Shown: positions 3,848 to 13,264, numbered from the stretch's first letter. The stretch: 64,000 bases of DNA from Alphaproteobacteria bacterium (GCA_965261735.1 OZ253470.1:4704001-4768000), one strand, 5' to 3'. Made by a program: numbers and translations. Notes: generated by a model from the sequence alone, not told the origin.

Positions 3848-4196
3848 GGTCACGCGTTCCTCTTGGCCCTGAACCACACTCAACAGCGGGCATAGCGGTA
3901 ACGAATGGCCCGCACGGCGCTTGCTCCGGCCAACCTACCATAATGCCCGATTCGCACCGAATCGTGAACCGTTTGGCGGCGTACCGCCGGTAGTGGAAGG
4001 CCCCCTCGACCGCACCGCAACCGGTAGGCTGCGGGTGTTGGCGTCATTATAGGAGGGTGCGCGCGGCCAATGAACAGGGAAAGCGCCGCCCGCCGCCCGA
4101 TGCCGGCATCACCCCTGAGAGCCGCGAATGAGCCTGAAATGGACAGGCAGCGCGCCGAGGACGTAATCTTGCGGCTCACCAGGCGCTGCAAGGGAG

Positions 4197-4604
4197 ATGG
4201 GCATGGCACGGCTTCGGCATATCGCGATCGTCGTTAGCGACAAGGAGAAAGCGGCCCAGTTCTACGAGCGCGTGTTCGAGATGAAGCGGGTTGGCGAAGA
4301 GGACGTGGGCGGCGGCAGCGCCATCTACCTGTCCGACGGCGTCATCAACCTAGCGCTCCTCAACTACAGATCCGACAAGATGGCCGGCATCAAGGACGCC
4401 AAGAACTTCATCGGCACCCACCATTTCGGCTTTCAGGTGGACGATCTCGCGGACTCGCAGGCGAAGATCGAGGCGGCTGGCGGCAGTTTCCACTTCGATC
4501 TCGGCGAAGACGACGAGAAGGTCAACTTCGAGAAGAAGTTTCGCGACCCCGACGGCATCATTTTCGATATTTCGAAGAGCGGCTGGGTCGGCACCGACGG
4601 CTGA
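4197..4604 (+). CDS. VOC/glyoxalase/bleomycin-resistance family protein
   Basis: ARLRHIAIVV, HHFGFQVDDL and KFRDPDGIIFDIS motifs. AGGGAG RBS upstream; the start could be ATG 4203. Confidence 0.85.
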   Translation: MGMARLRHIAIVVSDKEKAAQFYERVFEMKRVGEEDVGGGSAIYLSDGVINLALLNYRSDKMAGIKDAKNFIGTHHFGFQVDDLADSQAKIEAAGGSFHFDLGEDDEKVNFEKKFRDPDGIIFDISKSGWVGTDG

Positions 4605-4669
4605 AAGCGGACCACGACGATCCGACGCGGCCGCCCCCGGCCGGCGCGCCACCTACCTGCGGGTCGGTC

Positions 4670-5536
4670 TCAGAAGACCGACTTCTCGCTCTTCAGGAAG
4701 TGCCACGGTATCACCCACCGCTCGATAAACGTGACCGCGAGGAACAGCGTCACCGCGATCGTCGCGAGATAGAAGATCGCGGCGAAGGTCTCGGCGGTCT
4801 TGAACGCCGCGTTGGCGGCGATGATGACCGGACCCAGCCCCTCGTGGGCGCCCACCCATTCGCCGACGATGGCGCCGATGGGAGCGATCGTCGCGGAGAT
4901 CTTGAGGCCGGTGAAAATGTAGGGGGCCGAGCCGGGGAAGCGAACCTTCCAGAAGATTTGCCATTTGCTCGCGCCGAGCGAATCCATGAGGCTGATGGTG
5001 TCGCGATCGATCGAGACGAGGCCGGCGAAGACGTTCACGAACACCGGGAAGAAGACGATGATCGCCGCAACGATCACCTTGGGCGCCATGCCGAATCCGA
5101 ACCAGATAATCAGAATCGGTGCGATCGCAATGGTCGGGATGGCTTGTGTGCTGATGATCAGCGGCAGGATGGCCTGGCGCAGCGTGCGCGAGTGAAATAC
5201 GGCGGTGCCGAGAACGAATCCGATTCCGGCGCCGTAGCTGAAGCCAAGGATGATTTCCTGCAGTGTCACCCAGGCGTTGGGCAAGAACTTGTCGAGCGCG
5301 CGGTCATAGGCCGCGTACAGGATCTGATGAAGGGGCGGCAATATGTAGTCCGGCTGGTTGAACCAAACGTTGAAGTTTTCCCAGACGAAAACGATCAGCG
5401 CGACGGCGATCATCGCGGGTACAGCTGAACGCAGCCGCTCGGCGAGCGGTCTGCGCGGCGGGCCGCTGCGCGCCGGCGGGCCGGCCGGGCCTGCCGCCGT
5501 CTCTATTTCGCGGTCCAATCGCGCAGTCTGCGTCAT
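4670..5536 (-). CDS. NitT/TauT (ThiX/SsuC-like) ABC transporter permease
   Basis: Multiple TM segments. Motifs QAIPTIAIAPILIIWFGFG, EAA-like loop SLGASKWQIFWKVRFP and IGAIVGEW. Confidence 0.92.
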   Translation of the reverse strand: MTQTARLDREIETAAGPAGPPARSGPPRRPLAERLRSAVPAMIAVALIVFVWENFNVWFNQPDYILPPLHQILYAAYDRALDKFLPNAWVTLQEIILGFSYGAGIGFVLGTAVFHSRTLRQAILPLIISTQAIPTIAIAPILIIWFGFGMAPKVIVAAIIVFFPVFVNVFAGLVSIDRDTISLMDSLGASKWQIFWKVRFPGSAPYIFTGLKISATIAPIGAIVGEWVGAHEGLGPVIIAANAAFKTAETFAAIFYLATIAVTLFLAVTFIERWVIPWHFLKSEKSVF

Positions 5537-5660
5537 TCGTCCGCCACCCTACGGCGCCCGATCAAGGCGTCAACATGGCCGTCGCGCCGCCGCCGCCCCG
5601 GGGAGGACGATTGCCGACCCTGAGGGGAGCGAGCCCACGAAGGTTGAGCGCGCGGCCACC

Positions 5661-6683
5661 TTATGGCAGGTACTCGTTGGTGAAATACGTGGTTGCCGCG
5701 GCCGGTACGGTAATCAGCTTTTCCTGGACCGCCCAATCGAGCGATTCCTGCCAGATCGCCACGTCCTGGACGAGCATCTTGCCGTCGGCGGTGAACCAGT
5801 CACCCTTCGCGCCCTCGGCGATCTTGGTATGCTGGGCCAGCGTAAAAATCTCGTTGCCCTTGGCGATGACCTCGTTGGTTGGCCCGGGATTGGCGAAGAA
5901 GTCGCGCGCGCCCTTTTCCGTCGCCCGCAGGAAGCGACAGGTCGCGGCGGCGTTCTTCCTGACCCAGTTCTCGTTGCCAACGAGGACCTGGTAGTAGAAG
6001 GCGGGGACGCCGAAGTCGCGGTAGAGCAGCCAACGCACGGGGCCCTTGCCCTGTCCTGCCAACACCTCGTCGGCGACGATGCCCTCGCCGTACGTGATGC
6101 CGTGGGCGGCGTCGACCTTGTCCTCGACGATGAGGGCGACATGGGCGAAGCCCGGGTCGATGACCTTGACATCGTCGACGGTCAGGCCGCCCGACTTGAG
6201 GACGCTGCGCAAAAACGCCTGGGCATCGAGCTTGGGTCCGACGCCCAGCGTCATGCCCTTGAGATCGGCCGCCGACTGAATCGCCTTATCGCCCTTGAAG
6301 AACAGGCCCGACGAGATAACCCGCAACATCGCGGCGACCGAAATCACCGGAATGCCGGTATCGCGGGAGATCATGACCTCGGGCACGTAGGTCATGCTGA
6401 ACTGTACGCGCTCGCGCGCCACCAGCTTGATCGGGTCGGCCGGGTTGGCCGGCGAGATGACGTTAACCTCGAGCCCCTCGGCCTTGTAGAAGCCGTTGTT
6501 GATAGCCGAGAAAAACGGGCCCTGGACCGCCCACGGGAGCCAGTCCGCCATGACCGTGATCTTGGTTGTCTCGGCGGGCGAATCGCAGGGTCCCGCCAAG
6601 GCGTCGCGGGCCGGCACGCTAGTTGCGATCAGCGCAGCGGCGAGTGCCGCGGCGCCAAGTGTCCGAAATGAAATGTCAATCAC
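5661..6683 (-). CDS. NMT1/THI5-like (ThiY/SsuA family) ABC substrate-binding protein
   Basis: Signal peptide, then DWLPWAVQGPFF, GFYKAEGLEV and ADLKGMTLG motifs. Lies between the NitT/TauT ATPase and permease. Confidence 0.88.
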   Translation of the reverse strand: MIDISFRTLGAAALAAALIATSVPARDALAGPCDSPAETTKITVMADWLPWAVQGPFFSAINNGFYKAEGLEVNVISPANPADPIKLVARERVQFSMTYVPEVMISRDTGIPVISVAAMLRVISSGLFFKGDKAIQSAADLKGMTLGVGPKLDAQAFLRSVLKSGGLTVDDVKVIDPGFAHVALIVEDKVDAAHGITYGEGIVADEVLAGQGKGPVRWLLYRDFGVPAFYYQVLVGNENWVRKNAAATCRFLRATEKGARDFFANPGPTNEVIAKGNEIFTLAQHTKIAEGAKGDWFTADGKMLVQDVAIWQESLDWAVQEKLITVPAAATTYFTNEYLP

Positions 6684-6723
6684 CTTACTCCTCCCTCTCC
6701 TCTAGTTGCCTTCAATACCAGGG

Positions 6724-7524
6724 CTAAACAGCCGCAAAGCCCGGGCTCGCGGCCTTCACGCTTTCATCGTAAATCTGATCGAGCACGATTTTTTTCAGCT
6801 CGTTGAACCGCGCCGAGGTCAGCATGGTGTGGTCCCGCGGCCGATCCAGGTCGATGACCAGCTCGCCCTTGATGCGCCCCGGACGCGCCGACATCATCAG
6901 CACCCGATCGGACAGGAACACCGCCTCCTCGATGTCGTGGGTGATGAAGATGATCGTACGGTGGTCCTTCTCCCAGATGCTAAGCAGCCACTCCTGCATG
7001 ACCGAGCGGGTGAGCGCATCGAGCGCGCCGAACGGCTCGTCGAGCAGCAGGATGCTGCGGTCGCACAGCAGCGTGCGCATAAGGGCGGCGCGCTGGCGCA
7101 TGCCACCGGAAAGCTGGCTCGGATAGTTGTCGGCGAAGCCGCCGAGTCCGAATTCATCGAGGATCCGCTGTGCGCGCTCCTGCGCCTCTTTGCGCTTGGT
7201 GCCCAGCACCTCGATGCCGAGCGCCACGTTCTCTCGGATGTTGCGCCAGGGGAACAGCAGATCCTTCTGGAACATGTAGCTGAAATGTTCGTGCCGGACC
7301 GCGACCTCACTACCGTCGATCAGGATGTGTCCCGAGGTCGGCTCGAGCAGGCCGGCGATGATGTTGAGCAAGGTCGTCTTGCCGCAACCGCTGGGCCCGA
7401 CAATGGTGAGAAACTCCTTGGCCCGGACCGACAGGTCGGTGGACTCGACGGCCACGACGTCGAGCCCGTCGCCCTGCGGCGGAAACACCTTGTGGATGCC
7501 GACCAGCGTGACCTTGTCGTTCAC
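6724..7524 (-). CDS. NitT/TauT ABC transporter ATP-binding protein
   Basis: Walker A GPSGCGKT, signature LSGGMRQR, Walker B LLLDEPFGALD, and ITHDIEEA. Confidence 0.95.
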   Translation of the reverse strand: MNDKVTLVGIHKVFPPQGDGLDVVAVESTDLSVRAKEFLTIVGPSGCGKTTLLNIIAGLLEPTSGHILIDGSEVAVRHEHFSYMFQKDLLFPWRNIRENVALGIEVLGTKRKEAQERAQRILDEFGLGGFADNYPSQLSGGMRQRAALMRTLLCDRSILLLDEPFGALDALTRSVMQEWLLSIWEKDHRTIIFITHDIEEAVFLSDRVLMMSARPGRIKGELVIDLDRPRDHTMLTSARFNELKKIVLDQIYDESVKAASPGFAAV

Positions 7525-7636
7525 CGGCGGCGCCCCCCGTCCGCGCTCGCACGGCCCCGGAGGTGCATGGGGCGCTCGTTACCTACAGTTGTCACCGTGT
7601 CCCCCCGCAAATGCAGCGCTCGCCTACCGACGACGC

Positions 7637-8410
7637 TTAGGCGGCCTTTTTGTGCTGTGGCCAGAACGCCTGCGGAAGGTCGAGATCGGCGGCCTTGAAC
7701 ACGCCGTCCCAGCATTCCCACAGCCGGTCACGAACGAACCTGGCGTTGCCGTAGAAGCGCCGCCGCTGTAGCGGCGTATGGGCGTAGGCGCGGATCAGCT
7801 TCCTGCCCTCCGCCGCGTGCTCCATATCGCCCTCGATGTGGACGATGAAGATGTCGAGGTCGCGGTTCGTGAAGCCGAAGTGCTTCTTGAGCGGTGGCAC
7901 CAGGCGGATGTAGAAATCCGGCAGCATCGCTTCGCCGCCGACCATGCCGGCGGCCATCGCCAGCGCCGGCTCGTCGTGGATGCCGAAATGCACGATGTCC
8001 TCCATCGCGTCGCCGAGCTGGGGGTGGGGGCGCAGCCGTCCCTCGCGGTTCGCCGCCTCGATCTCGCCCCTGTCGTACCCACACGCCTCGGCAAACTCGA
8101 TCGCCAATACGTAGTGCGCGGCGTGACCACAACGCTCCTCGGTCTCTTCGTCGATGAGGTTCTCCATGATGGCGGTACGGGCGCCGAGATCCATGTTGTG
8201 CATCAGGCACGATCCGATGTTACGCACGCTATGGTTGTAGTAGTACATCATCTGATAGCAGATCTTGTTGATCTGATCGCGGGCAACCTCGCCCCGCACC
8301 AGGCGGTCGAGAAACGGGTGGTCGGCGAGCCGGCGCTGCTCGATCATGCCGGTGATCGTATCGACGAACTCATCGGGCTTCATCTCGCGGGTGACATCGA
8401 TGCCATCCAT
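7637..8410 (-). CDS. Heme-oxygenase-like diiron oxidase (HDO; PqqC/CADD/TenA fold) with complete metal-ligand set
   Basis: N-terminal HPF. ENLIDE(88)E...H99, E160 and H191-x3-D195-x2-H198 match the CADD-type E/H/E/HxxxDxxH diiron pattern. Confidence 0.8.
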   Translation of the reverse strand: MDGIDVTREMKPDEFVDTITGMIEQRRLADHPFLDRLVRGEVARDQINKICYQMMYYYNHSVRNIGSCLMHNMDLGARTAIMENLIDEETEERCGHAAHYVLAIEFAEACGYDRGEIEAANREGRLRPHPQLGDAMEDIVHFGIHDEPALAMAAGMVGGEAMLPDFYIRLVPPLKKHFGFTNRDLDIFIVHIEGDMEHAAEGRKLIRAYAHTPLQRRRFYGNARFVRDRLWECWDGVFKAADLDLPQAFWPQHKKAA

Positions 8411-8527
8411 GGTTGGCTCTCCCGGCTCTCTTCGGCGCCGCTCACATCGCGGCGTCGGTCTCTATCAGGTCGCTACGGTATTCCACGGGACGCGACCCTG
8501 CAACAGCCGGCGAAACTGGCGAAAGGT

Positions 8528-9235
8528 CTAGGCGGCGCGCGTGCCCTGCGCACCAACGAACAGCGAATCCCAGCATGCGTACCATTCATCGCGCAGCCGC
8601 TCGGTGTAGTACACCAGGCGCAGCCGATCGAACGTGTCGCGGCAGTGCTGGAGCGCGTGGTCGACGTCGGACGGAGCGAATAGCGCCGGCGCCTTAAAGA
8701 CGCGAAGCGCGCTCTCGGGAACCCCGTAGTGGGTCCTGAACGCCTTGGCCAGGGCACGGTTGAGGCCCTTCATCTGGGACTCGACCGCGGCGCAGGCGCC
8801 TAGCGTGACCCAGTACACGGGCCGTTCCATTGTCGCGATGACCTCGCCAAAACGGTCTTCCAGCGTCGACGAAAGAGCTGCGGCCCGGGCCGCCTTGGCC
8901 GACACGCCGAGCGCCCGCGCCAGCTCCCGCGCCAGCGCCGCATGCGCGCCCTCGCCGATGCGCAAGCTGGTGCCGTCGCCGAGCTTGATCGGGGTCAGCA
9001 TTTTGTCGACGAAGAGGCGGCGGATCGTGTAGTCGGCGCTGTTCATGTACATCGGGCCGTAGAGCTCGATGACGTTGTCGTAATAGGGGATGAGCTGCGT
9101 CGCGACATCGCGCACCTGCCGCTTCGATGCGCGACCGGTCCGGAACTGCGCCTTGAACCACGGATGATCGACGATGCGGCGTTGGAGCGCGGTGCCGTAC
9201 AACGTCTCGGCATTCACGACCGGTTCGGCGCTCAT
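8528..9235 (-). CDS. Second heme-oxygenase-like fold protein with degenerate metal ligands
   Basis: Collinear with the 7637-8410 protein (QRRIVDHPWF vs QRRLADHPFL; AHAALA; AVESQ; HYG; WYACWD vs LWECWD). It lacks the DEE glutamate and the His of HxxxDxxH. Confidence 0.7.
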   Translation of the reverse strand: MSAEPVVNAETLYGTALQRRIVDHPWFKAQFRTGRASKRQVRDVATQLIPYYDNVIELYGPMYMNSADYTIRRLFVDKMLTPIKLGDGTSLRIGEGAHAALARELARALGVSAKAARAAALSSTLEDRFGEVIATMERPVYWVTLGACAAVESQMKGLNRALAKAFRTHYGVPESALRVFKAPALFAPSDVDHALQHCRDTFDRLRLVYYTERLRDEWYACWDSLFVGAQGTRAA

Positions 9236-9370
9236 CGATTCTCTCTCTCGGAGGATAACTTGGTGTCCAGGTATAGGAATCGCCTAGGCGAGTCAAGCCG
9301 GGGCCAACGCCGCATCGGGCGGGGGTGATGTAGCCTGGCCGAGGCCCGAAAACGGCCACCCGGGCGCGCC

Positions 9371-9399
9371 TTGCCGGGCCTGCCGCCATCCGTTATGGT
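9371..9399 (+). promoter_or_regulatory. Candidate sigma70 promoter of the FAH gene
   Basis: TTGCCG-N17-TATGGT, about 55 nt upstream of ATG 9454. Confidence 0.4.
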
Positions 9400-9453
9400 G
9401 CGCGCCGCCGCACAGACATCACAATAATACGTCCCTGGGGAGGAGCCCTGAAC

Positions 9454-10305
9454 ATGCGTTTCGCCACACTCGTCGGTCCCGACCGCCAGTCCTATTTCGT
9501 GCGCGTCAAGGATGGGGTCGCGACTCCCATCGGCCGTGCCTATGAGCGGCCCGGTGCCGACCCGCTGCGCGACCTCCTCGAGGCCCGCAAGAGCCCGGCC
9601 CGCGCGCCGGCCATCGCCGATCCCTTTCCCGCCGGCCGCGCCCGCCACCACCCGGCGGTCACCGCGCCGTCGAAGATCGTCGCCATTGGCCTCAACTACC
9701 GCAAGCACGCCAAGGAGACGAACAATCCTCTTCCCAAGGCGCCAATGTCGTGGTGCAAGTACACGAGCAGCCTGCTCGGCCACAACCGGCCGATTCGCTA
9801 CCGGCGCAAGGATTCGACCAAGATCGATTACGAGACCGAGCTCGCGTTCGTCTTTGGGAGTCGCGCGCGCGACGTCAAGAAGTCCAAGGCCCTCGATTAT
9901 GTCTTCGGCTACACCATGTGCAACGACGTCACCGCGCGCGACCACCAGTTTGCGGAGGGGCAGTTCGCGCGTAGCAAAAGCTTCGACACCTTCTCGCCGC
10001 TGGGACCCGTGATCGTCACCGCGGACGAGATTCCCGATCCACAAGCCATCACCATCCGCACCCGGCTCAACGGCAAGGTGATGCAGGAGGAGACGACCGG
10101 CGACATGGTGTTCTCGTGCGCCGAGCTCATCGAGTACCTGTCGCGCTTCTTCACCTTCGAGCCGGGCGACGTGGTCAGCACGGGCACGCCGTCCGGTGTG
10201 GGCGTCGCCCGCAAGCCGCCGGTGTTTATGAAGAACGGCGATATCGTCGAGGTCGAGGGCGACAAGATCGGCACCCTGCGCAACCCCGTCCAGGTCTACA
10301 AGTAG
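9454..10305 (+). CDS. Fumarylacetoacetate hydrolase (FAH) family protein
   Basis: IVAIGLNYRKH, DYETEL, NDVTARD, KSFDTFSPLGP and PGDVVSTGTPSGVG motifs. GGAGGAG RBS. Confidence 0.95.
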   Translation: MRFATLVGPDRQSYFVRVKDGVATPIGRAYERPGADPLRDLLEARKSPARAPAIADPFPAGRARHHPAVTAPSKIVAIGLNYRKHAKETNNPLPKAPMSWCKYTSSLLGHNRPIRYRRKDSTKIDYETELAFVFGSRARDVKKSKALDYVFGYTMCNDVTARDHQFAEGQFARSKSFDTFSPLGPVIVTADEIPDPQAITIRTRLNGKVMQEETTGDMVFSCAELIEYLSRFFTFEPGDVVSTGTPSGVGVARKPPVFMKNGDIVEVEGDKIGTLRNPVQVYK

Positions 10306-10354
10306 CGCGGGACGAGCCGGCGCTGGCCCGCCCAACCTCACGGGCGGCCGAGCC

Positions 10355-11194
10355 TCAGCCCGCCTTGGTCCGGCGCGCGCGGCCCGAGCGTCCGGCGCGC
10401 CCGTGGTGCACGATCTCGGGGCCCATGAAGCCGAGGGCGGCGCCGCCGTCGATGGGAATCAACACGCCCGTCATCCAGGACGACTTCTCGGAGGCGAGGA
10501 ACGAGACCAGCTCCGAGACGTCGTCGGGCTCACCCGTCCGCCCCAGCGGATACCTTGAGTTGCGCTGCTTGAGGTCGGCCTCGTAGTCCTTGCGCGACAC
10601 GCCTTCCGGGAAATAGATCTCGCTGCGCACCAGGGCCGGGCTGATGATGTTGACGCGGACGCCGAAGGGGCCGAGCTCCAGTGCTAACGATTTCGAGAAG
10701 GCATCGATGCCGCCTTTTGAAGTCGCATAGACCATGTGCCCGAAGCCGGGGCGGTAGGACAGGCTCGACGAGATGTTGATGATCGAGCCTTTGGTCTTCT
10801 TCAGCGCCGGGATGCACGCGAGCGAGAAGTTCATCGTGCCGTAGAGGTTGATGCCCATCGTGTAGGCGATGGCTTCTTGCGTGACCTTGTCATAGGTCTG
10901 GCGGCGCACGACGCCGGCGTTGTTGACCAGCACGTCGATGCGGCCGAAGTCGGCGAGGACACTCTTGACCGTCTGCTTGACCTGCTTTAGGTCGGCGATG
11001 TCGCATACGTAGGGGTGGAGCTTCTCGCCGCGGCGCGGCTTGAGGCGGCCTGCGCGGCGGCCGATCACGGCGACCGTGAAGCCGTCGTCGACGAGCGTGT
11101 TGGCGGCGTCACGCCCGAGGCCGGTGCCACCGCCGGTGACGATCGCAACCCTCTTTGCGTTGGGGCGTCTCTTTGTTGTCGCCGTTCTCGCCAT
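10355..11194 (-). CDS. Short-chain dehydrogenase/reductase (SDR)
   Basis: True start ATG 11194 after GGAGGA RBS. TGGGTGLG, NNAG and YATSK motifs. Basic N- and C-terminal tails. Confidence 0.93.
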   Translation of the reverse strand: MARTATTKRRPNAKRVAIVTGGGTGLGRDAANTLVDDGFTVAVIGRRAGRLKPRRGEKLHPYVCDIADLKQVKQTVKSVLADFGRIDVLVNNAGVVRRQTYDKVTQEAIAYTMGINLYGTMNFSLACIPALKKTKGSIINISSSLSYRPGFGHMVYATSKGGIDAFSKSLALELGPFGVRVNIISPALVRSEIYFPEGVSRKDYEADLKQRNSRYPLGRTGEPDDVSELVSFLASEKSSWMTGVLIPIDGGAALGFMGPEIVHHGRAGRSGRARRTKAG

Positions 11195-11205: not shown

Positions 11206-12191
11206 TTAGCTGTCGAGCGTTTCCATCATCGCCTGCGGATAGCGTGGTCCCGAGGCCGCGCCGGGCGGCAATGCCCGGTCGAGCTCGGCGAGCTCGTCGC
11301 CCGACAGGGTGAGGTCGAGGGCGGCCACGTTCTCTTCGAGATAGGCGCGCCGCTGCGTCCCCGGGATCGGAATCACGTGATCGTCGCAGTGCACGACCCA
11401 GGCGAGCGCGAGCTGCGCCGGCGTGCACCCTTGTTCCCGGCGATGTCGGCGATGGCGCGGACGAGTTCGAGGTTGCGGGTGAAATTCTCGCCTTGAAAGC
11501 GCGGATGGTTGTGGCGCCGGTCGCTCTCGGGGAGCGCGCCCACGTCCTTGACGCTGCCCGCCAGCATGCCGCGCCCGAGTGGGCTGTAGGCGACGAAGGC
11601 GACGCCGAGGGCGCGGCTCGCGGCGAGCGAACCCGACTGATTGTCGCGGCTCCACAGCGACAGCTCGCTCTGCAGGGCAGCGATCGGGCATACGGCCATC
11701 GCGCGTTCGAGCGTCGCTCCGGAGGCCTCGGAGAGGCCGACATAGCGGACCTTCCCGGCCTCGCGCAGCTTCGCCATGGCGCCCATGGAGTCCTCGATCG
11801 GGACGTTGGGATCGACCCGGTGCAGGTAGTAAAGGTCGATGGTCTCAACGCCGAGGCGTTTGAGACTGGCGTCGCACGCTTGGAGGATGTAATCGGGGCG
11901 GCCGTCGAGGGACAGGCCTTGGGCGCCGAACTTGTTGCCGCATTTGGTGGCGAGGAAGACGCCCTCGCGCCGGCCCCGGATGGCGCGGCCAACGAATTCC
12001 TCGTTCTCGCCATTGCCGTAGACATCGGCAGTGTCGAGAAAGGTGACGCCAAGCTCCAGCGCGCGCTCGATAGTGGCGCGGGCCTCGCCGTCGTCGCGCA
12101 CGCCGTACCAGCCGGCCATGCCCATGCAGCCGAGGCCGAGCGCGGAGACGAGCGGGCCGCCGCGGCCGAGCTCGCGTGTCTTCATATCCAC
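11206..12191 (-). pseudogene. Aldo/keto reductase split by a one-base frameshift (pseudogene or sequencing indel)
   Basis: N-terminal part in ORF 11373..12191 ([28 protein letters not shown]). C-terminal part ([19 protein letters not shown]) in the other frame, ending at 11206. The shift lies at about 11428-11442. Confidence 0.85.
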
Positions 12192-12210: not shown

Positions 12211-13197
12211 CTAAAGGTTGAGGCGGCCCATCATCGCCTCGGGGTAGCGCTCGCCGGCGGGCGCGCTCGGCGGCACTGCCGTATCGAGGCGGGCGAGCTC
12301 AGCCTCGGTGAGGACGATGTCGGCTGCAGCGAGATTTTCCTCGAGGTAAGTGCGCCGCTGCGTCCCCGGTATGGGCACGATGTCCTCGCCCTTGTTCAAT
12401 ACCCAGGCGAGCGCGATCTGGGCTGGCGTCACGTTGCGCTCGGCGGCGAGCGCCGCCACCTCGCCGAGCAGATCGAGGTTGCGCTCCATGTTGCCTTCCT
12501 GGAAGCGCGGGAAGCGCCGGCGTACGTCGCCCGCCGCGAGGTCGTCGATCTTGTGGATGACACCGGACAGGAGGCCCCGGCCGAGCGGGCTGTAGGCCAC
12601 GAAACCGATGCCGAGCTCGCGGCACACATCCAGGTGCCCTATTTCGGGCTCTCTGGCGAGTAATGAGTACTCGGTCTGCAGCGCGGTGATCGGATGCACG
12701 CCGTGGGCGCGGCGGATGGTCTCGGGCGCCGCCTCGGAGAGGCCGATGTGTCGCACCTTGCCCGCCTCCACGAGCCGCGCCATGGCCCCGACCGTATCCT
12801 CGATCGGGCAATTGGAGTCGACGCGGTGGAGATAGTAGAGGTCGATGACGTCGGTGCCGAGGCGGCTCAGGCTGCCCTCGCACGCCTTCGCCGCGTAGGC
12901 GGGGCTGCCATCGACGTCGACCGAGGCACCGGAGTCGTTCCACACGTGCCCGAACTTGGTCGCCAGGAACACCCGATCGCGGCGCCCGCGCAGCGCCTCG
13001 CCGACGAAACGCTCGTTGTCGCCGGCGCCATAGACGTCGGCCGTATCGAGGAAGTCGACGCCGAGCTCGAAGGCGCGTTCGAGCGTGGCACGAGCCTCGC
13101 CGTCGTCGCGCACCCCGTACCATCCGGCCATGCCCATGCAGCCGAGGCCCAGGGCCGAGACCTCGGGGCCGTCGCGCCCGAGCTTGCGTCTTTGCAT
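12211..13197 (-). CDS. Aldo/keto reductase
   Basis: Start ATG 13197 ([23 protein letters not shown]). DTADVYG, LYYLHR, SPLGRG and PIPGT motifs. Intact. Confidence 0.95.
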
Positions 13198-13264
13198 GAT
13201 CCCCCCCTTTCGTTGGCGGCTGAGTGTGCCCGCTCGCCGCCACCGGCGCAAGCCGCCGGGCGCA

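Follow-up and report, generated by a model that had tools for sequence, protein, structure and literature searches.

What does a predicted dimetal oxidase/oxygenase of the heme-oxygenase-like (HDO) type do when it is encoded beside a paralog with an incomplete metal site and beside an ABC importer? This question is raised by a locus in a 64,000-nucleotide stretch of an Alphaproteobacteria bacterium genome (GCA_965261735.1 OZ253470.1:4704001-4768000; hereafter the window), which a sequence-only reading had interpreted as an uptake-and-oxidation system built on a heteromeric HDO. All validated HDOs are biosynthetic according to the accessible part of a 2026 review (PMC13108848). The earlier statement that no catabolic HDO heterodimer has been described agrees with the literature that we searched, including that part of the review, where we found no catabolic or heteromeric HDO. 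A rare, conserved pair joined to an importer points to a role for HDOs in handling imported compounds, and not in natural-product making alone.

Organization of the locus

An ORF check found the five co-oriented genes that had been reported, all on the minus strand and in the order HDO-B, HDO-A, ABC ATPase, ThiY-like NMT1 binding protein and permease (Table 1). The gaps between B and A measure 72–124 nt, and translational coupling was not seen. The combination in one operon of an NMT1-type binding protein, a BPD_transp_1 permease and an ABC_tran ATPase corresponds to a NitT/TauT-family (ThiXYZ-like) layout.

Table 1. Features of the locus, numbered from the first nucleotide of the window
Feature	Position	Strand	Basis and remarks
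HDO-B	8528..9235	-	235 aa; ORF; ligand-degenerate heme-oxygenase-like paralog
HDO-A	7637..8410	-	257 aa; ORF; predicted catalytic dimetal oxidase/oxygenase
ABC ATP-binding subunit, NitT/TauT type	6724..7524	-	ABC_tran 121.9 bits
Periplasmic solute-binding protein, NMT1/THI5-like	5661..6683	-	NMT1 155.5 bits
ABC permease	4670..5536	-	BPD_transp_1 111.8 bits
Fumarylacetoacetate-hydrolase-family (FAH) enzyme, divergent from B	9454..10305	+	FAA_hydrolase 254.8 bits
Intergenic region between divergent B and FAH gene	9236..9453	.	Position only
VOC/glyoxalase-family protein, downstream side of the operon, opposite strand	4197..4604	+	Glyoxalase 59.2 bits

HDO-A carries an invariant six-ligand site

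HDO-A scores 50.3 bits on the Pfam family Haem_oxygenas_2 (PF14518, cut-off 28.9), and among proteins of known structure it matches the 4-aminobenzoate synthases 9pj4, 1rcw and 8va9 best (E about 1e-10). In the alignment with CtCADD, residues E88, H99, E160, H191, D195 and H198 fall on the CADD ligand columns. The full CADD-like set previously read from HDO-A extends to its whole family: each of the six ligands (3 His/3 carboxylate, E-H-E-H-D/E-H, alpha1 to alpha3) is present in 39/39 distinct A-family sequences. The block ENxIDEETxxRCG is likewise invariant and contains Cys94, which lies between the two alpha1 ligands and is also found in 39/39 sequences. HDO-A would be expected to bind Fe/Fe or Fe/Mn and to activate O2.

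The predicted model of HDO-A (pLDDT 86.4) superposes on 8va9 with Foldseek TM values of 0.73/0.86, and that of HDO-B (pLDDT 89.0) has seven helices, CtCADD as its nearest structure and a beta hairpin at 82–92. The CADD-like, seven-helix heme-oxygenase-like fold is present in both models, whose top Foldseek matches are CtCADD followed by PqqC, UndA, BesC, HrmI and PolF, all with probability 1.00.

Family membership was evaluated against profiles of the characterized relatives. By these scores HDO-A does not resemble an ordinary TenA or PqqC, an outcome named beforehand as speaking against the proposal, and it misses the thresholds for all four families: TENA_THI-4 (PF03070; 19.5 bits, cut-off 22), PqqC (TIGR02111; 24.4, cut-off 240), CADD (TIGR04305; 65.7, cut-off 200) and BesC (NF042919; 19.7, cut-off 500). 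HDO-B has no match to TENA_THI-4 or PqqC and reaches 32.3 bits on the CADD model. In CADD the sacrificial Tyr and amine-donor Lys, which we take to be Tyr27 and Lys152 in CtCADD, align with A positions 34 (L in 15, F in 23 and V in 1 of 39 sequences) and 170 (L, I, M or V in the same 39). CtCADD and NePabS (1rcw, 8va9, 9pj4) are the best sequence and fold match of A and B as single-domain, compact seven-helix bundles, and share the six-ligand dimetal site with A, but CADD has neither a paralog partner nor a link to an importer.

HDO-B has lost two ligands and keeps motifs of its own

HDO-B aligns with HDO-A nearly end to end (A 11–241 with B 4–229, 23% identity, E 5e-12), and its score of 29.5 bits on PF14518 lies barely above the cut-off. 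In the window, HDO-B has DKMLTP at the position of ENLIDEE in A and F186 at the position of H191, and retains H98, E152, D190 and H193, exactly as had been described; it does not have the 3 His/3 carboxylate set. Among 27 distinct B sequences the first His of the HxxxDxxH motif is never His (26 Phe, 1 Tyr), and no residue is conserved at the first carboxylate position. The retention of H, E and DxxH is only partly a property of the family: position 98 is H in 22 and Q in 5 sequences, position 152 is E in 26 and D in 1, position 190 is D in 25 and another residue in 2, and position 193 is H in 22, R in 3 and Y in 2. Since these four positions are kept in at least 22 of the 27 sequences, beyond what a purely structural need would call for, HDO-B could bind one metal. 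One MAFFT alignment placed D87 of B in the column of E88 of A; we rejected D87 as a conserved replacement ligand because orthologs have D, N, E, Q or K there.

Conservation in B also takes a form of its own. Among 21 B sequences 38 columns are invariant, E95 is invariant, and the family shares the invariant motifs HPW, YGPxY, DYxxRR, RxGEGA, PxxW, FxAP and YYxxRxRxE. The genome encodes 21 HDO paralogs, and HDO-B alone among them lacks the full ligand set.

The B–A pair is kept together and probably ancient

Whether B and A occur together was a test set in advance. B is the gene immediately upstream of A in the window, as it is in 7/7 same-family genomes and 2/2 Acidimicrobiales genomes. The A-family metagenome loci show this arrangement in 11 of 12 cases (11/11 with room), the remaining locus having only 113 nt upstream. 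The pair is kept together across two phyla. As a control, 67 more distant ENxIDEET-type HDO loci were examined, and none carries another HDO or any ABC component of the NitT type. HDO genes number 5–33 per genome in the host family and 0–2 in other families of its class.

Judging from the tree, HDO-B is probably an ancient duplicate of A: A and B are sisters, placed together on one side of a branch with support 95/88. This branch recurs in 94% of the bootstrap trees, the inner topologies of A and B match, and the B stem is long (1.61 vs 0.72). A B profile run against 1.84 billion representatives gave A-like proteins as the best matches after B's own two clusters. Relaxed selection on B, the other test set in advance, was not seen. 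In seven within-genus pairs dN/dS is 0.09–0.18 for B, indicating purifying selection, and 0.03–0.09 for A; in six of the pairs the rate of B exceeds that of A by a factor of about 1.5 to 4, and in the seventh the two are equal. The gene is intact in all 10 genomes examined, its in-frame TAG being the natural stop. One relative, G002, carries one B with five diverged tandem copies of A, which shows that strict 1:1 genetic pairing does not hold. We searched for a fused A–B protein and found none, which is weak evidence against an A:B contact.

Importer parts of two classes adjoin the pair

The best solved relative of the binding protein is the FAMP-binding ThiY (3ix1, E 4.5e-34), and its N-terminus resembles a signal peptide; the presence of binding proteins suggests that transport is directed inward. 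The best NCBIfam matches are SaoA, TauB and NtrCD for the ATPase and SaoP, TauC and SsuC for the permease, all under their cut-offs. Against the equivalog cut-offs the ATPase scores 221.5/360 (SaoA), 220.6/357 (TauB) and 146.5/245 (ThiQ), and the binding protein scores 35.2 on SsuA_fam (cut-off 163.5). No substrate-specific transporter equivalog (TauB, SsuB, ThiQ, SaoA and others) exceeded its NCBIfam cut-off.

In the neighborhood survey, the expected linkage of A, B and ABC genes was most consistent for the ATPase. An ATPase ortholog with 75–80% identity directly follows A in 6/6 relatives whose contig continues, making it the most conserved neighbor of the pair. Binding-protein orthologs (52–53% identity) occur in the G003 and G005 clusters and a permease ortholog (65%) in that of G002; the G002 cluster shows no binding protein and the G003 cluster no permease. 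In three of the seven relatives (G001, G004 and G006) the ATPase alone adjoins the pair, and binding protein and permease are absent beside it. Farther afield the proposed importer linkage proved stronger than first claimed. In three Acidimicrobiales-type loci (L027, L028 and L055), B–A is followed by a Liv-type binding protein, permeases and ATPases that are non-homologous to the NitT-type parts; the occurrence of the pair with this unrelated ABC importer indicates that the uptake link survives a swap of transporter class. Of the 19 other HDO paralogs in the host genome, 12 have an importer part no more than two genes away, and NMT1-type binding proteins adjoin six other paralogs.

Proposed function and competing explanations

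We propose, with about even confidence for and against, that the locus is an uptake-coupled oxidative processing module in which HDO-B is an obligate non-catalytic partner of HDO-A. The ABC importer would bring in a small molecule, and HDO-A, through its intact two-metal site (Fe/Fe or Fe/Mn), would activate O2 and oxidize it by chemistry of the kinds known in the superfamily, namely C–C cleavage, desaturation or N-oxygenation; the product may then feed hydrolytic neighbors such as the FAH-family enzyme, in a catabolic or scavenging role. HDO-B, with two of its six metal ligands lost for good, would stand in for one of the two A subunits and so form an A:B heterodimer, where it may stabilize A, help to load a labile cofactor or hold the substrate. 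Such a heterodimer is the most likely arrangement given that characterized HDOs are homodimers in crystals, with UndA, BesC, CADD, AetD, FlcD and SznF described as homodimers in the accessible text of PMC11363339.

A model for the possible role of B is offered by the small subunit of yeast ribonucleotide reductase. There, Rnr4 lacks the iron ligands, and it helps Rnr2 to fold and to load its cofactor. Rnr2–Rnr4 is, in the portion of PMC4245953 available, a heterodimer of a diiron protein with its paralog, which is the point of likeness to A and B; it differs in being ferritin-like in fold and eukaryotic and in that contact is proven, whereas for A and B we infer it.

The metal positions left in B lend themselves to a different explanation, in which B, active with a reduced site, and A are two sequential enzymes that treat the imported compound in either order. 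B would hold one metal through H98, E152, D190 and H193, or none, as in PqqC and TenA. We consider this possible but doubtful. The available part of PMC11363339 describes a precedent in the fluopsin C operon, where two HDO paralogs, one with a full and one with a degenerate site, act in turn: FlcE with two irons and FlcD, a proven one-iron HDO (pattern E-H-X-H-V-R) that uses a single iron after loss of two ligands and keeps the Fe1 ligands. The four positions retained in most B sequences, the invariant E95, the invariant polar residues of DYxxRR and RxGEGA, the confident B model (pLDDT 89) and the single B serving five A copies in G002 also fit an active B. Against this, B reads X-H-E-F-D-H and, by the description of FlcD in that text, has lost two of the three iron-holding Fe1 residues that FlcD keeps; in some orthologs its surviving positions hold Q, R, Y, V or I, substitutions that one would not usually expect of essential metal ligands, and its faster evolution relative to A argues in the same direction. 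The Flc enzymes are biosynthetic homodimers with an N-terminal domain and no importer. The opposite extreme, a functionless B duplicated from A and now decaying or neutral, would account for its marginal PF14518 score, long stem branch and lost ligands, but is barely credible; we regard it as ruled out by intact frames in 10/10 genomes, low dN/dS and the 38 invariant columns, and the position of B next to A across two phyla likewise opposes it.

Other explanations concern what is imported and why. In the tauABCD and ssuEADCB operons, the genes for an importer stand beside that for an O2-dependent oxygenase whose substrate is the compound taken up. HDO-A might in the same manner cleave a C–S, C–P or C–N bond so that S, P or N is set free from an imported organosulfonate, phosphonate or amine, with the carbon left unused, a variant of the partner-subunit proposal that differs from it in physiological role alone and that we judge unlikely. 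The NitT/TauT-family importer and oxygenase are common to both layouts, the models that the ATPase and permease match best describe taurine, sulfonate and nitrate transporters, and near other HDO paralogs there are binding proteins that match Phosphonate-bd and, in one case, a TauD gene. The transporter scores nevertheless fall far below the equivalog cut-offs, importers of the Liv type, as in the Acidimicrobiales loci, typically serve amino acids and amides, and the FAH, SDR and aldo-keto reductase neighbors suggest that the carbon skeleton is used; the Tau and Ssu oxygenases are also Fe/2-oxoglutarate- or flavin-dependent and have no pseudo-subunit. TenA with ThiXYZ, the salvage pathway of the thiamin pyrimidine, likewise combines a heme-oxygenase-fold protein with an importer of the NitT family whose binding protein is of the ThiY type. 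A and B could then replace the same-fold TenA beside an importer of a formylaminopyrimidine-like compound, as the similarity to ThiY, the TenA structures among the fold matches of both models and the weak TENA_THI-4 match of A would allow. We hold this to be very improbable: that match is under the cut-off and B has none, TenA is metal-free and its chemistry does not need the six invariant metal ligands of A, and the search for a TPP riboswitch or another Rfam family gave nothing here at E values up to 1 in 4000–10500, and nothing at gathering score in nine orthologous loci (L020–L028). The Liv-type importer, the five tandem A copies in G002, the catabolic-enzyme neighbors, and the six other HDO paralogs that adjoin NMT1-type binding proteins also argue against thiamin salvage.

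Neighboring genes, regulation and expression

The FAH enzyme is a recurrent neighbor in the alphaproteobacterial family and a candidate for the downstream step. Orthologs with 62–75% identity lie in the fetched stretch of 5/7 relatives; in G002, G003 and G005 the gene is the immediate divergent neighbor of B. It is present in L045 and L046 as well but was not found in the Acidimicrobiales loci. SDR and aldo-keto reductase genes are among the neighbors, and some relatives have molybdenum-hydroxylase, Rieske and Amidohydro_2 genes nearby. Together with the ThiY-like binding protein, the latter genes might point to an N-heterocycle or pyrimidine substrate, and the neighborhood hints, weakly, at catabolism of an N-heterocycle or similar compound.

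The region 9236..9453 presumably holds the promoter of B as well as that of the FAH gene. It yielded no sigma-70-like site and no Rfam match, and an alignment of six orthologous regions contains no conserved block. Contigs from RNA libraries (up to four runs), in which DNA can occur, match portions of six genes (permease, binding protein, ATPase, A, B and FAH) with 0–4 differences from the window, and in three of these runs, where DNA is again possible, a contig bridges the A–ATPase gap.

Homologs of the VOC/glyoxalase gene turn up again close to the pair in one related genus, as a tandem of two next to the ATPase in G001 and G006 and at a distance of about 6 kb in G004.

Architecture of the five-gene operon

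The five minus-strand open reading frames that the sequence-only reading had described were recovered at the same positions by ORF, Pfam and alignment analysis, with the families and ligand patterns that it had claimed for them.

Genes of the HDO-B/HDO-A operon, with window positions and Pfam matches
Gene	Position	Strand	Pfam match
HDO-B	8528-9235	minus	PF14518 Haem_oxygenas_2, 29.5 bits (cut-off 28.9)
HDO-A	7637-8410	minus	PF14518, 50.3 bits
ATPase	6724-7524	minus	ABC_tran, 121.9 bits
Binding protein	5661-6683	minus	NMT1/THI5-like, 155.5 bits
Permease	4670-5536	minus	BPD_transp_1, 111.8 bits

The two heme-oxygenase-like dimetal oxidase (HDO) genes encode proteins, hereafter A and B, that share 23% identity across nearly their whole length (E 5e-12). 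Among solved structures, A comes closest to CADD-type 4-aminobenzoate synthases (E about 1e-10), and B matches one structure of this type at E 0.004 only. AlphaFold models built on family alignments reach pLDDT values of 86.4 for A and 89.0 for B, and for both models the best structural match is CtCADD, followed by PqqC, UndA, BesC, HrmI, PolF and TenA. The sole poorly predicted internal stretch of the A model, residues 88-95 (EETEERCG), lies between two α1 ligands; at the equivalent place in the B model, residues 82-92 form a confident β hairpin. ESM Atlas returned only generic HDO/TenA-family clusters with B (scores 0.92-0.93), and fused forms of B were absent among proteins of 413-2000 aa, which counts as weak evidence. 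For the transporter, the nearest NCBIfam models are taurine, nitrate, sulfonate and 'Sao' systems, all far under their equivalog cut-offs.

Metal ligands of A and B

In a HMMER alignment, residues E88, H99, E160, H191, D195 and H198 of A fall on the six ligand columns of CtCADD. None of the six varies among 39 distinct A-family sequences, and E83, E89 and Cys94 of the ENxIDEETxxRCG block are likewise constant. In B, DKMLTP replaces the ENLIDEE of A, and F186 replaces H191. Among 27 distinct B sequences, position 186, which corresponds to the first α3 His of A, is Phe in 26 and Tyr in one; E152 is Glu in 26 and Asp in one; D190 is Asp in 25, with other residues in two; H98 is His in 22 and Gln in five; and H193 is His in 22, Arg in three and Tyr in two. 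The first-carboxylate region holds no conserved acid across the B sequences. Thirty-eight invariant columns are specific to B, including HPW, YGPxY, DYxxRR, RxGEGA, FxAP and YYxxRxRxE, and B alone among the 21 HDO paralogs of the genome lacks the full ligand set.

Cys94 of A (window positions 8129-8131; block residues 83-95) is invariant (39/39 sequences); it is part of an RCG motif located between the α1 metal ligands, and sits within the low-confidence stretch of the A model. Ala-Ala forms the extreme C-terminus, encoded at 7637-7660 for the A of the window, in 24 of the 39 A-family proteins, mostly within KKAA, NKAA or QKAA, and the B protein of the window finishes with RAA. Such an ending is reminiscent of protease recognition tags.

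Conservation and origin of the B-A pair

The concern that B might be a decaying duplicate was not borne out: an intact B is present both in the window and in nine further genomes, and dN/dS is low, with values in seven within-genus pairs of 0.09-0.18 for B and 0.03-0.09 for A. The in-frame TAG reported for three B orthologs proved to be their normal stop codon, which the aligner had read through. A lack of co-occurrence with A, the other ground on which the pair had been open to doubt, was not found either, as all seven genomes of the window's family have B, in each case immediately upstream of A (7/7). B was detected in 0/33 genomes from other families of the same class and in 0/400 further genomes sampled across the phylum. 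Two Acidimicrobiales genomes hold the pair, with 38% (B) and 58% (A) identity to the window's proteins. Twelve metagenome loci have an A-family gene (54-76% identity), and in 11 of them B is again directly upstream, the twelfth having just 113 nt of upstream sequence; these loci partly duplicate the counted genomes (the contig of L047 is as long as G006:C49, and the intergenic sequence of L045 is the same as in G005). As a control, 0/67 loci of more distant ENxIDEET-type HDOs (23-31% identity) contained another HDO or any NitT-type ABC part, and three such loci had unrelated genes beside the HDO (rotamase, HupE/UreJ, amidohydrolase), none of them informative.

The B family is very small. At 90% identity, 5.8 billion proteins yield 19 clusters of it, and a B profile searched against 1.84 billion representatives gave two clusters at E up to 1e-30, the next best matches after these and one 104-aa fragment being A-like proteins. 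The A family comprises 35 clusters and reaches down to 46% identity. In an IQ-TREE phylogeny of 56 rows (the genome's 21 paralogs, the A and B orthologs of nine loci and 13 hand-picked database proteins, without known HDOs), A forms one clade (99/99) and B another (100/100); a single branch (95/88; 94% of bootstrap trees) separates A and B together from the other rows, and the topology inside the A clade agrees with that inside the B clade. B is on a long stem, and its attachment could therefore suffer long-branch effects. The simplest reading of these sequences is that a single ancient duplication of an A-like gene would have been followed by joint inheritance or joint transfer of the two copies.

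The relative G002 carries one B followed by five tandem, diverged A copies and then ATPase and permease genes (L020:3564-8924); the five copies are 54-63% identical to the window's A, and all have the ligand set. The true start of B is uncertain in one related genus, where its open frame runs further upstream (L024:1220-1430, L025, L026:7386-7466). In G007 a possible ATG start would lengthen the N-terminus by a Lys-rich segment (MAKKSKPRK...), and G003 and G005 have a comparable ATG and Lys-rich stretch upstream of B.

Association with importers of two classes

An ATPase ortholog (75-80% identity) directly follows A in 6/6 relatives in which the contig continues. A permease ortholog is adjacent in G002 and binding-protein orthologs in G003 and G005; in the fetched stretches of G001, G004 and G006, neither binding protein nor permease was found at E up to 1e-15. 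The B-A pair of the two Acidimicrobiales genomes (loci L027 and L028) and of the metagenome locus L055 precedes a gene for a Peripla_BP_6 binding protein (in L028 at 9517-10908), behind which lie BPD_transp_2 permeases (two in L028, one called in each of L027 and L055) and Liv-type ABC ATPases (two Pfam-confirmed in L028, one in L027, and by tblastn only in L055); a GntR/FCD regulator is present in L028 and L055. This importer belongs to a different, non-homologous ABC class, with Leu/Ile/Val-binding proteins as the closest solved relatives. Since an importer stays beside B-A while its class changes, the arrangement argues for a functional tie of the pair to uptake. NMT1-type and Liv-type binding proteins that serve one B-A module should share one ligand, which offers a practical route to function.

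Gene neighborhood

A FAH-family hydrolase gene is transcribed divergently from B in the window, and SDR, aldo-keto reductase, esterase and amidohydrolase genes lie past it. FAH orthologs are near the pair in 5/7 relatives; the G003 locus also holds a Rieske oxygenase and an Amidohydro_2 gene, and molybdenum-hydroxylase subunits are encoded within a few kb of the pair in G001 and G002. In both Acidimicrobiales genomes a gene for a Suc_Fer-like protein (thioredoxin-like ferredoxin) is divergent from B (L028:6892-7893, L027:402-1418), and this protein may supply the oxidase with electrons. The neighbors fit oxidative breakdown of a nitrogen-containing or aromatic small molecule and prove nothing.

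The aldo-keto reductase gene at 11206-12191 on the minus strand is probably frameshifted. Its ORF 11373-12191 (minus) matches just positions 2-237 of the 291-position Pfam model, and the overlapping ORF 11206-11691 carries, in another frame, a typical C-terminal end of the family, like that of the intact neighbor at 12211-13200.

HDO expansion in the host family

HDO genes number 5-33 per genome in the host alphaproteobacterial family. PF14518 matches are 21 in the window's own genome (G000) and 33, 20, 5, 22, 22, 20 and 15 in G001-G007, the genome with 5 matches being 86% complete and that with 15 being 63% complete. Of 33 genomes from other families of the class, 29 have no match, three have one and one has two. 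By heuristic gene calls in G000, 12/19 other HDO paralogs have an importer part within two genes (NMT1 binding proteins, TRAP DctP/Q/M, permeases or ATPases), and amidohydrolases, amidases or alpha/beta hydrolases are often beside them (loci L029-L042, e.g. L040, G000:C1:4197000-4216999).

Five HDO genes occur together in one 20-kb cluster, along with genes for two NMT1 binding proteins, an FAD oxidoreductase, two hydrolases and a VOC protein. Two HDO genes are duplicated with identical scores (G000:C1:641159-641863 and 4206420-4207124; 2586342-2587040 and 3087523-3088221), each together with a neighboring NMT1 binding-protein gene, and IS1595, IS66 and DDE_3 transposase genes are near them. 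At L030, an FAD-oxidoreductase ORF continues into an IS1595 transposase domain.

A putative heteromeric oxidase and its alternatives

With confidence evenly poised, we propose that B-A forms an uptake-coupled oxidative module, in which A would be the dimetal catalyst and B a non-catalytic partner that has been kept, probably as the other subunit of a putative heterodimer. Yeast Rnr4 lacks metal ligands. The yeast Rnr2-Rnr4 pair, a heterodimer according to the available part of PMC4245953, follows a logic comparable to that of the proposed A:B heterodimer. In the available text of PMC11363339, UndA, BesC, CADD, AetD, FlcD and SznF are homodimers. The same text describes FlcD as a one-iron HDO with the ligand pattern E-H-X-H-V-R and shows FlcD and FlcE to act in sequence, and the main rival likens B-A to these two: A and B would be enzymes that act one after the other, B through a reduced site. 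We consider this unlikely.

A thiamin salvage system would agree with the closest solved relative of the binding protein, the formylaminopyrimidine-binding ThiY (3ix1, E 4.5e-34). This reading is weakened because no riboswitch was found (no Rfam match in the operon at E up to 1, and none at gathering score in nine orthologous loci), the TenA score is under threshold, the Acidimicrobiales loci use a Liv-type importer, and G002 has the five tandem A copies. The identity of A as a pABA synthase was rejected, its TIGR04305 score being 65.7 vs 200 and the sacrificial Tyr and Lys columns holding hydrophobic residues.

The uptake-coupled module may, more doubtfully, be the first heteromeric HDO, in which a dedicated pseudo-enzyme subunit would stabilize or load the labile cofactor of the dimetal catalyst or present the substrate, within a wider, undescribed catabolic or scavenging use of HDOs that are wired to importers and expanded in one alphaproteobacterial family. 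The available part of a 2026 review (PMC13108848) counts about a dozen validated HDOs, acting mostly on fatty-acid or amino-acid substrates, with the characterized ones serving natural-product or cofactor biosynthesis, and notes the lability of the HDO cluster. A full-text literature search gave no catabolic, importer-linked, heteromeric or pseudo-enzyme HDO, and supplementary similarity networks may include this group. A conserved, importer-linked HDO would extend the superfamily to catabolism or scavenging, and HDOs would, if the wider reading is true, be a major enzyme class that consumes environmental small molecules, beyond natural-product making. B would be the first pseudo-enzyme subunit in the heme-oxygenase-like fold, and a long-retained, ligand-degenerate partner would be a new way to cope with the labile cofactor, which has been an obstacle to structural studies of HDOs.

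Regulation and expression

A promoter scan gave 0 promoter-like sites, and a terminator scan gave three terminator-like sites vs 3.6 expected, all three inside genes. Folding of the B-A (z -0.52) and A-ATPase (z +1.54) intergenic regions indicated no structure, and six aligned FAH/B intergenic regions share no conserved operator-like block.

The stretch is present, in whole or in part, in 20 public runs from 12 studies; 14 of these contain at least half of its sampled words, and RNA is on record for five of the 20. Contigs of four RNA-library runs cover the permease, binding-protein, ATPase, A and FAH genes and part of B with 0-4 differences; cover is absent over about 8991-9207 and almost absent over 8774-8990 (the 5' half of B), which is not evidential. 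The A-ATPase gap is bridged by a contig in three runs; such RNA libraries can contain DNA, and the contigs do not prove a single transcript. One RNA-library run labelled 'sponge metagenome' has pieces of 197 and 273 nt that match the binding-protein and A genes without a difference, and in three runs the contigs are without one base at 7601, in the A-ATPase gap.
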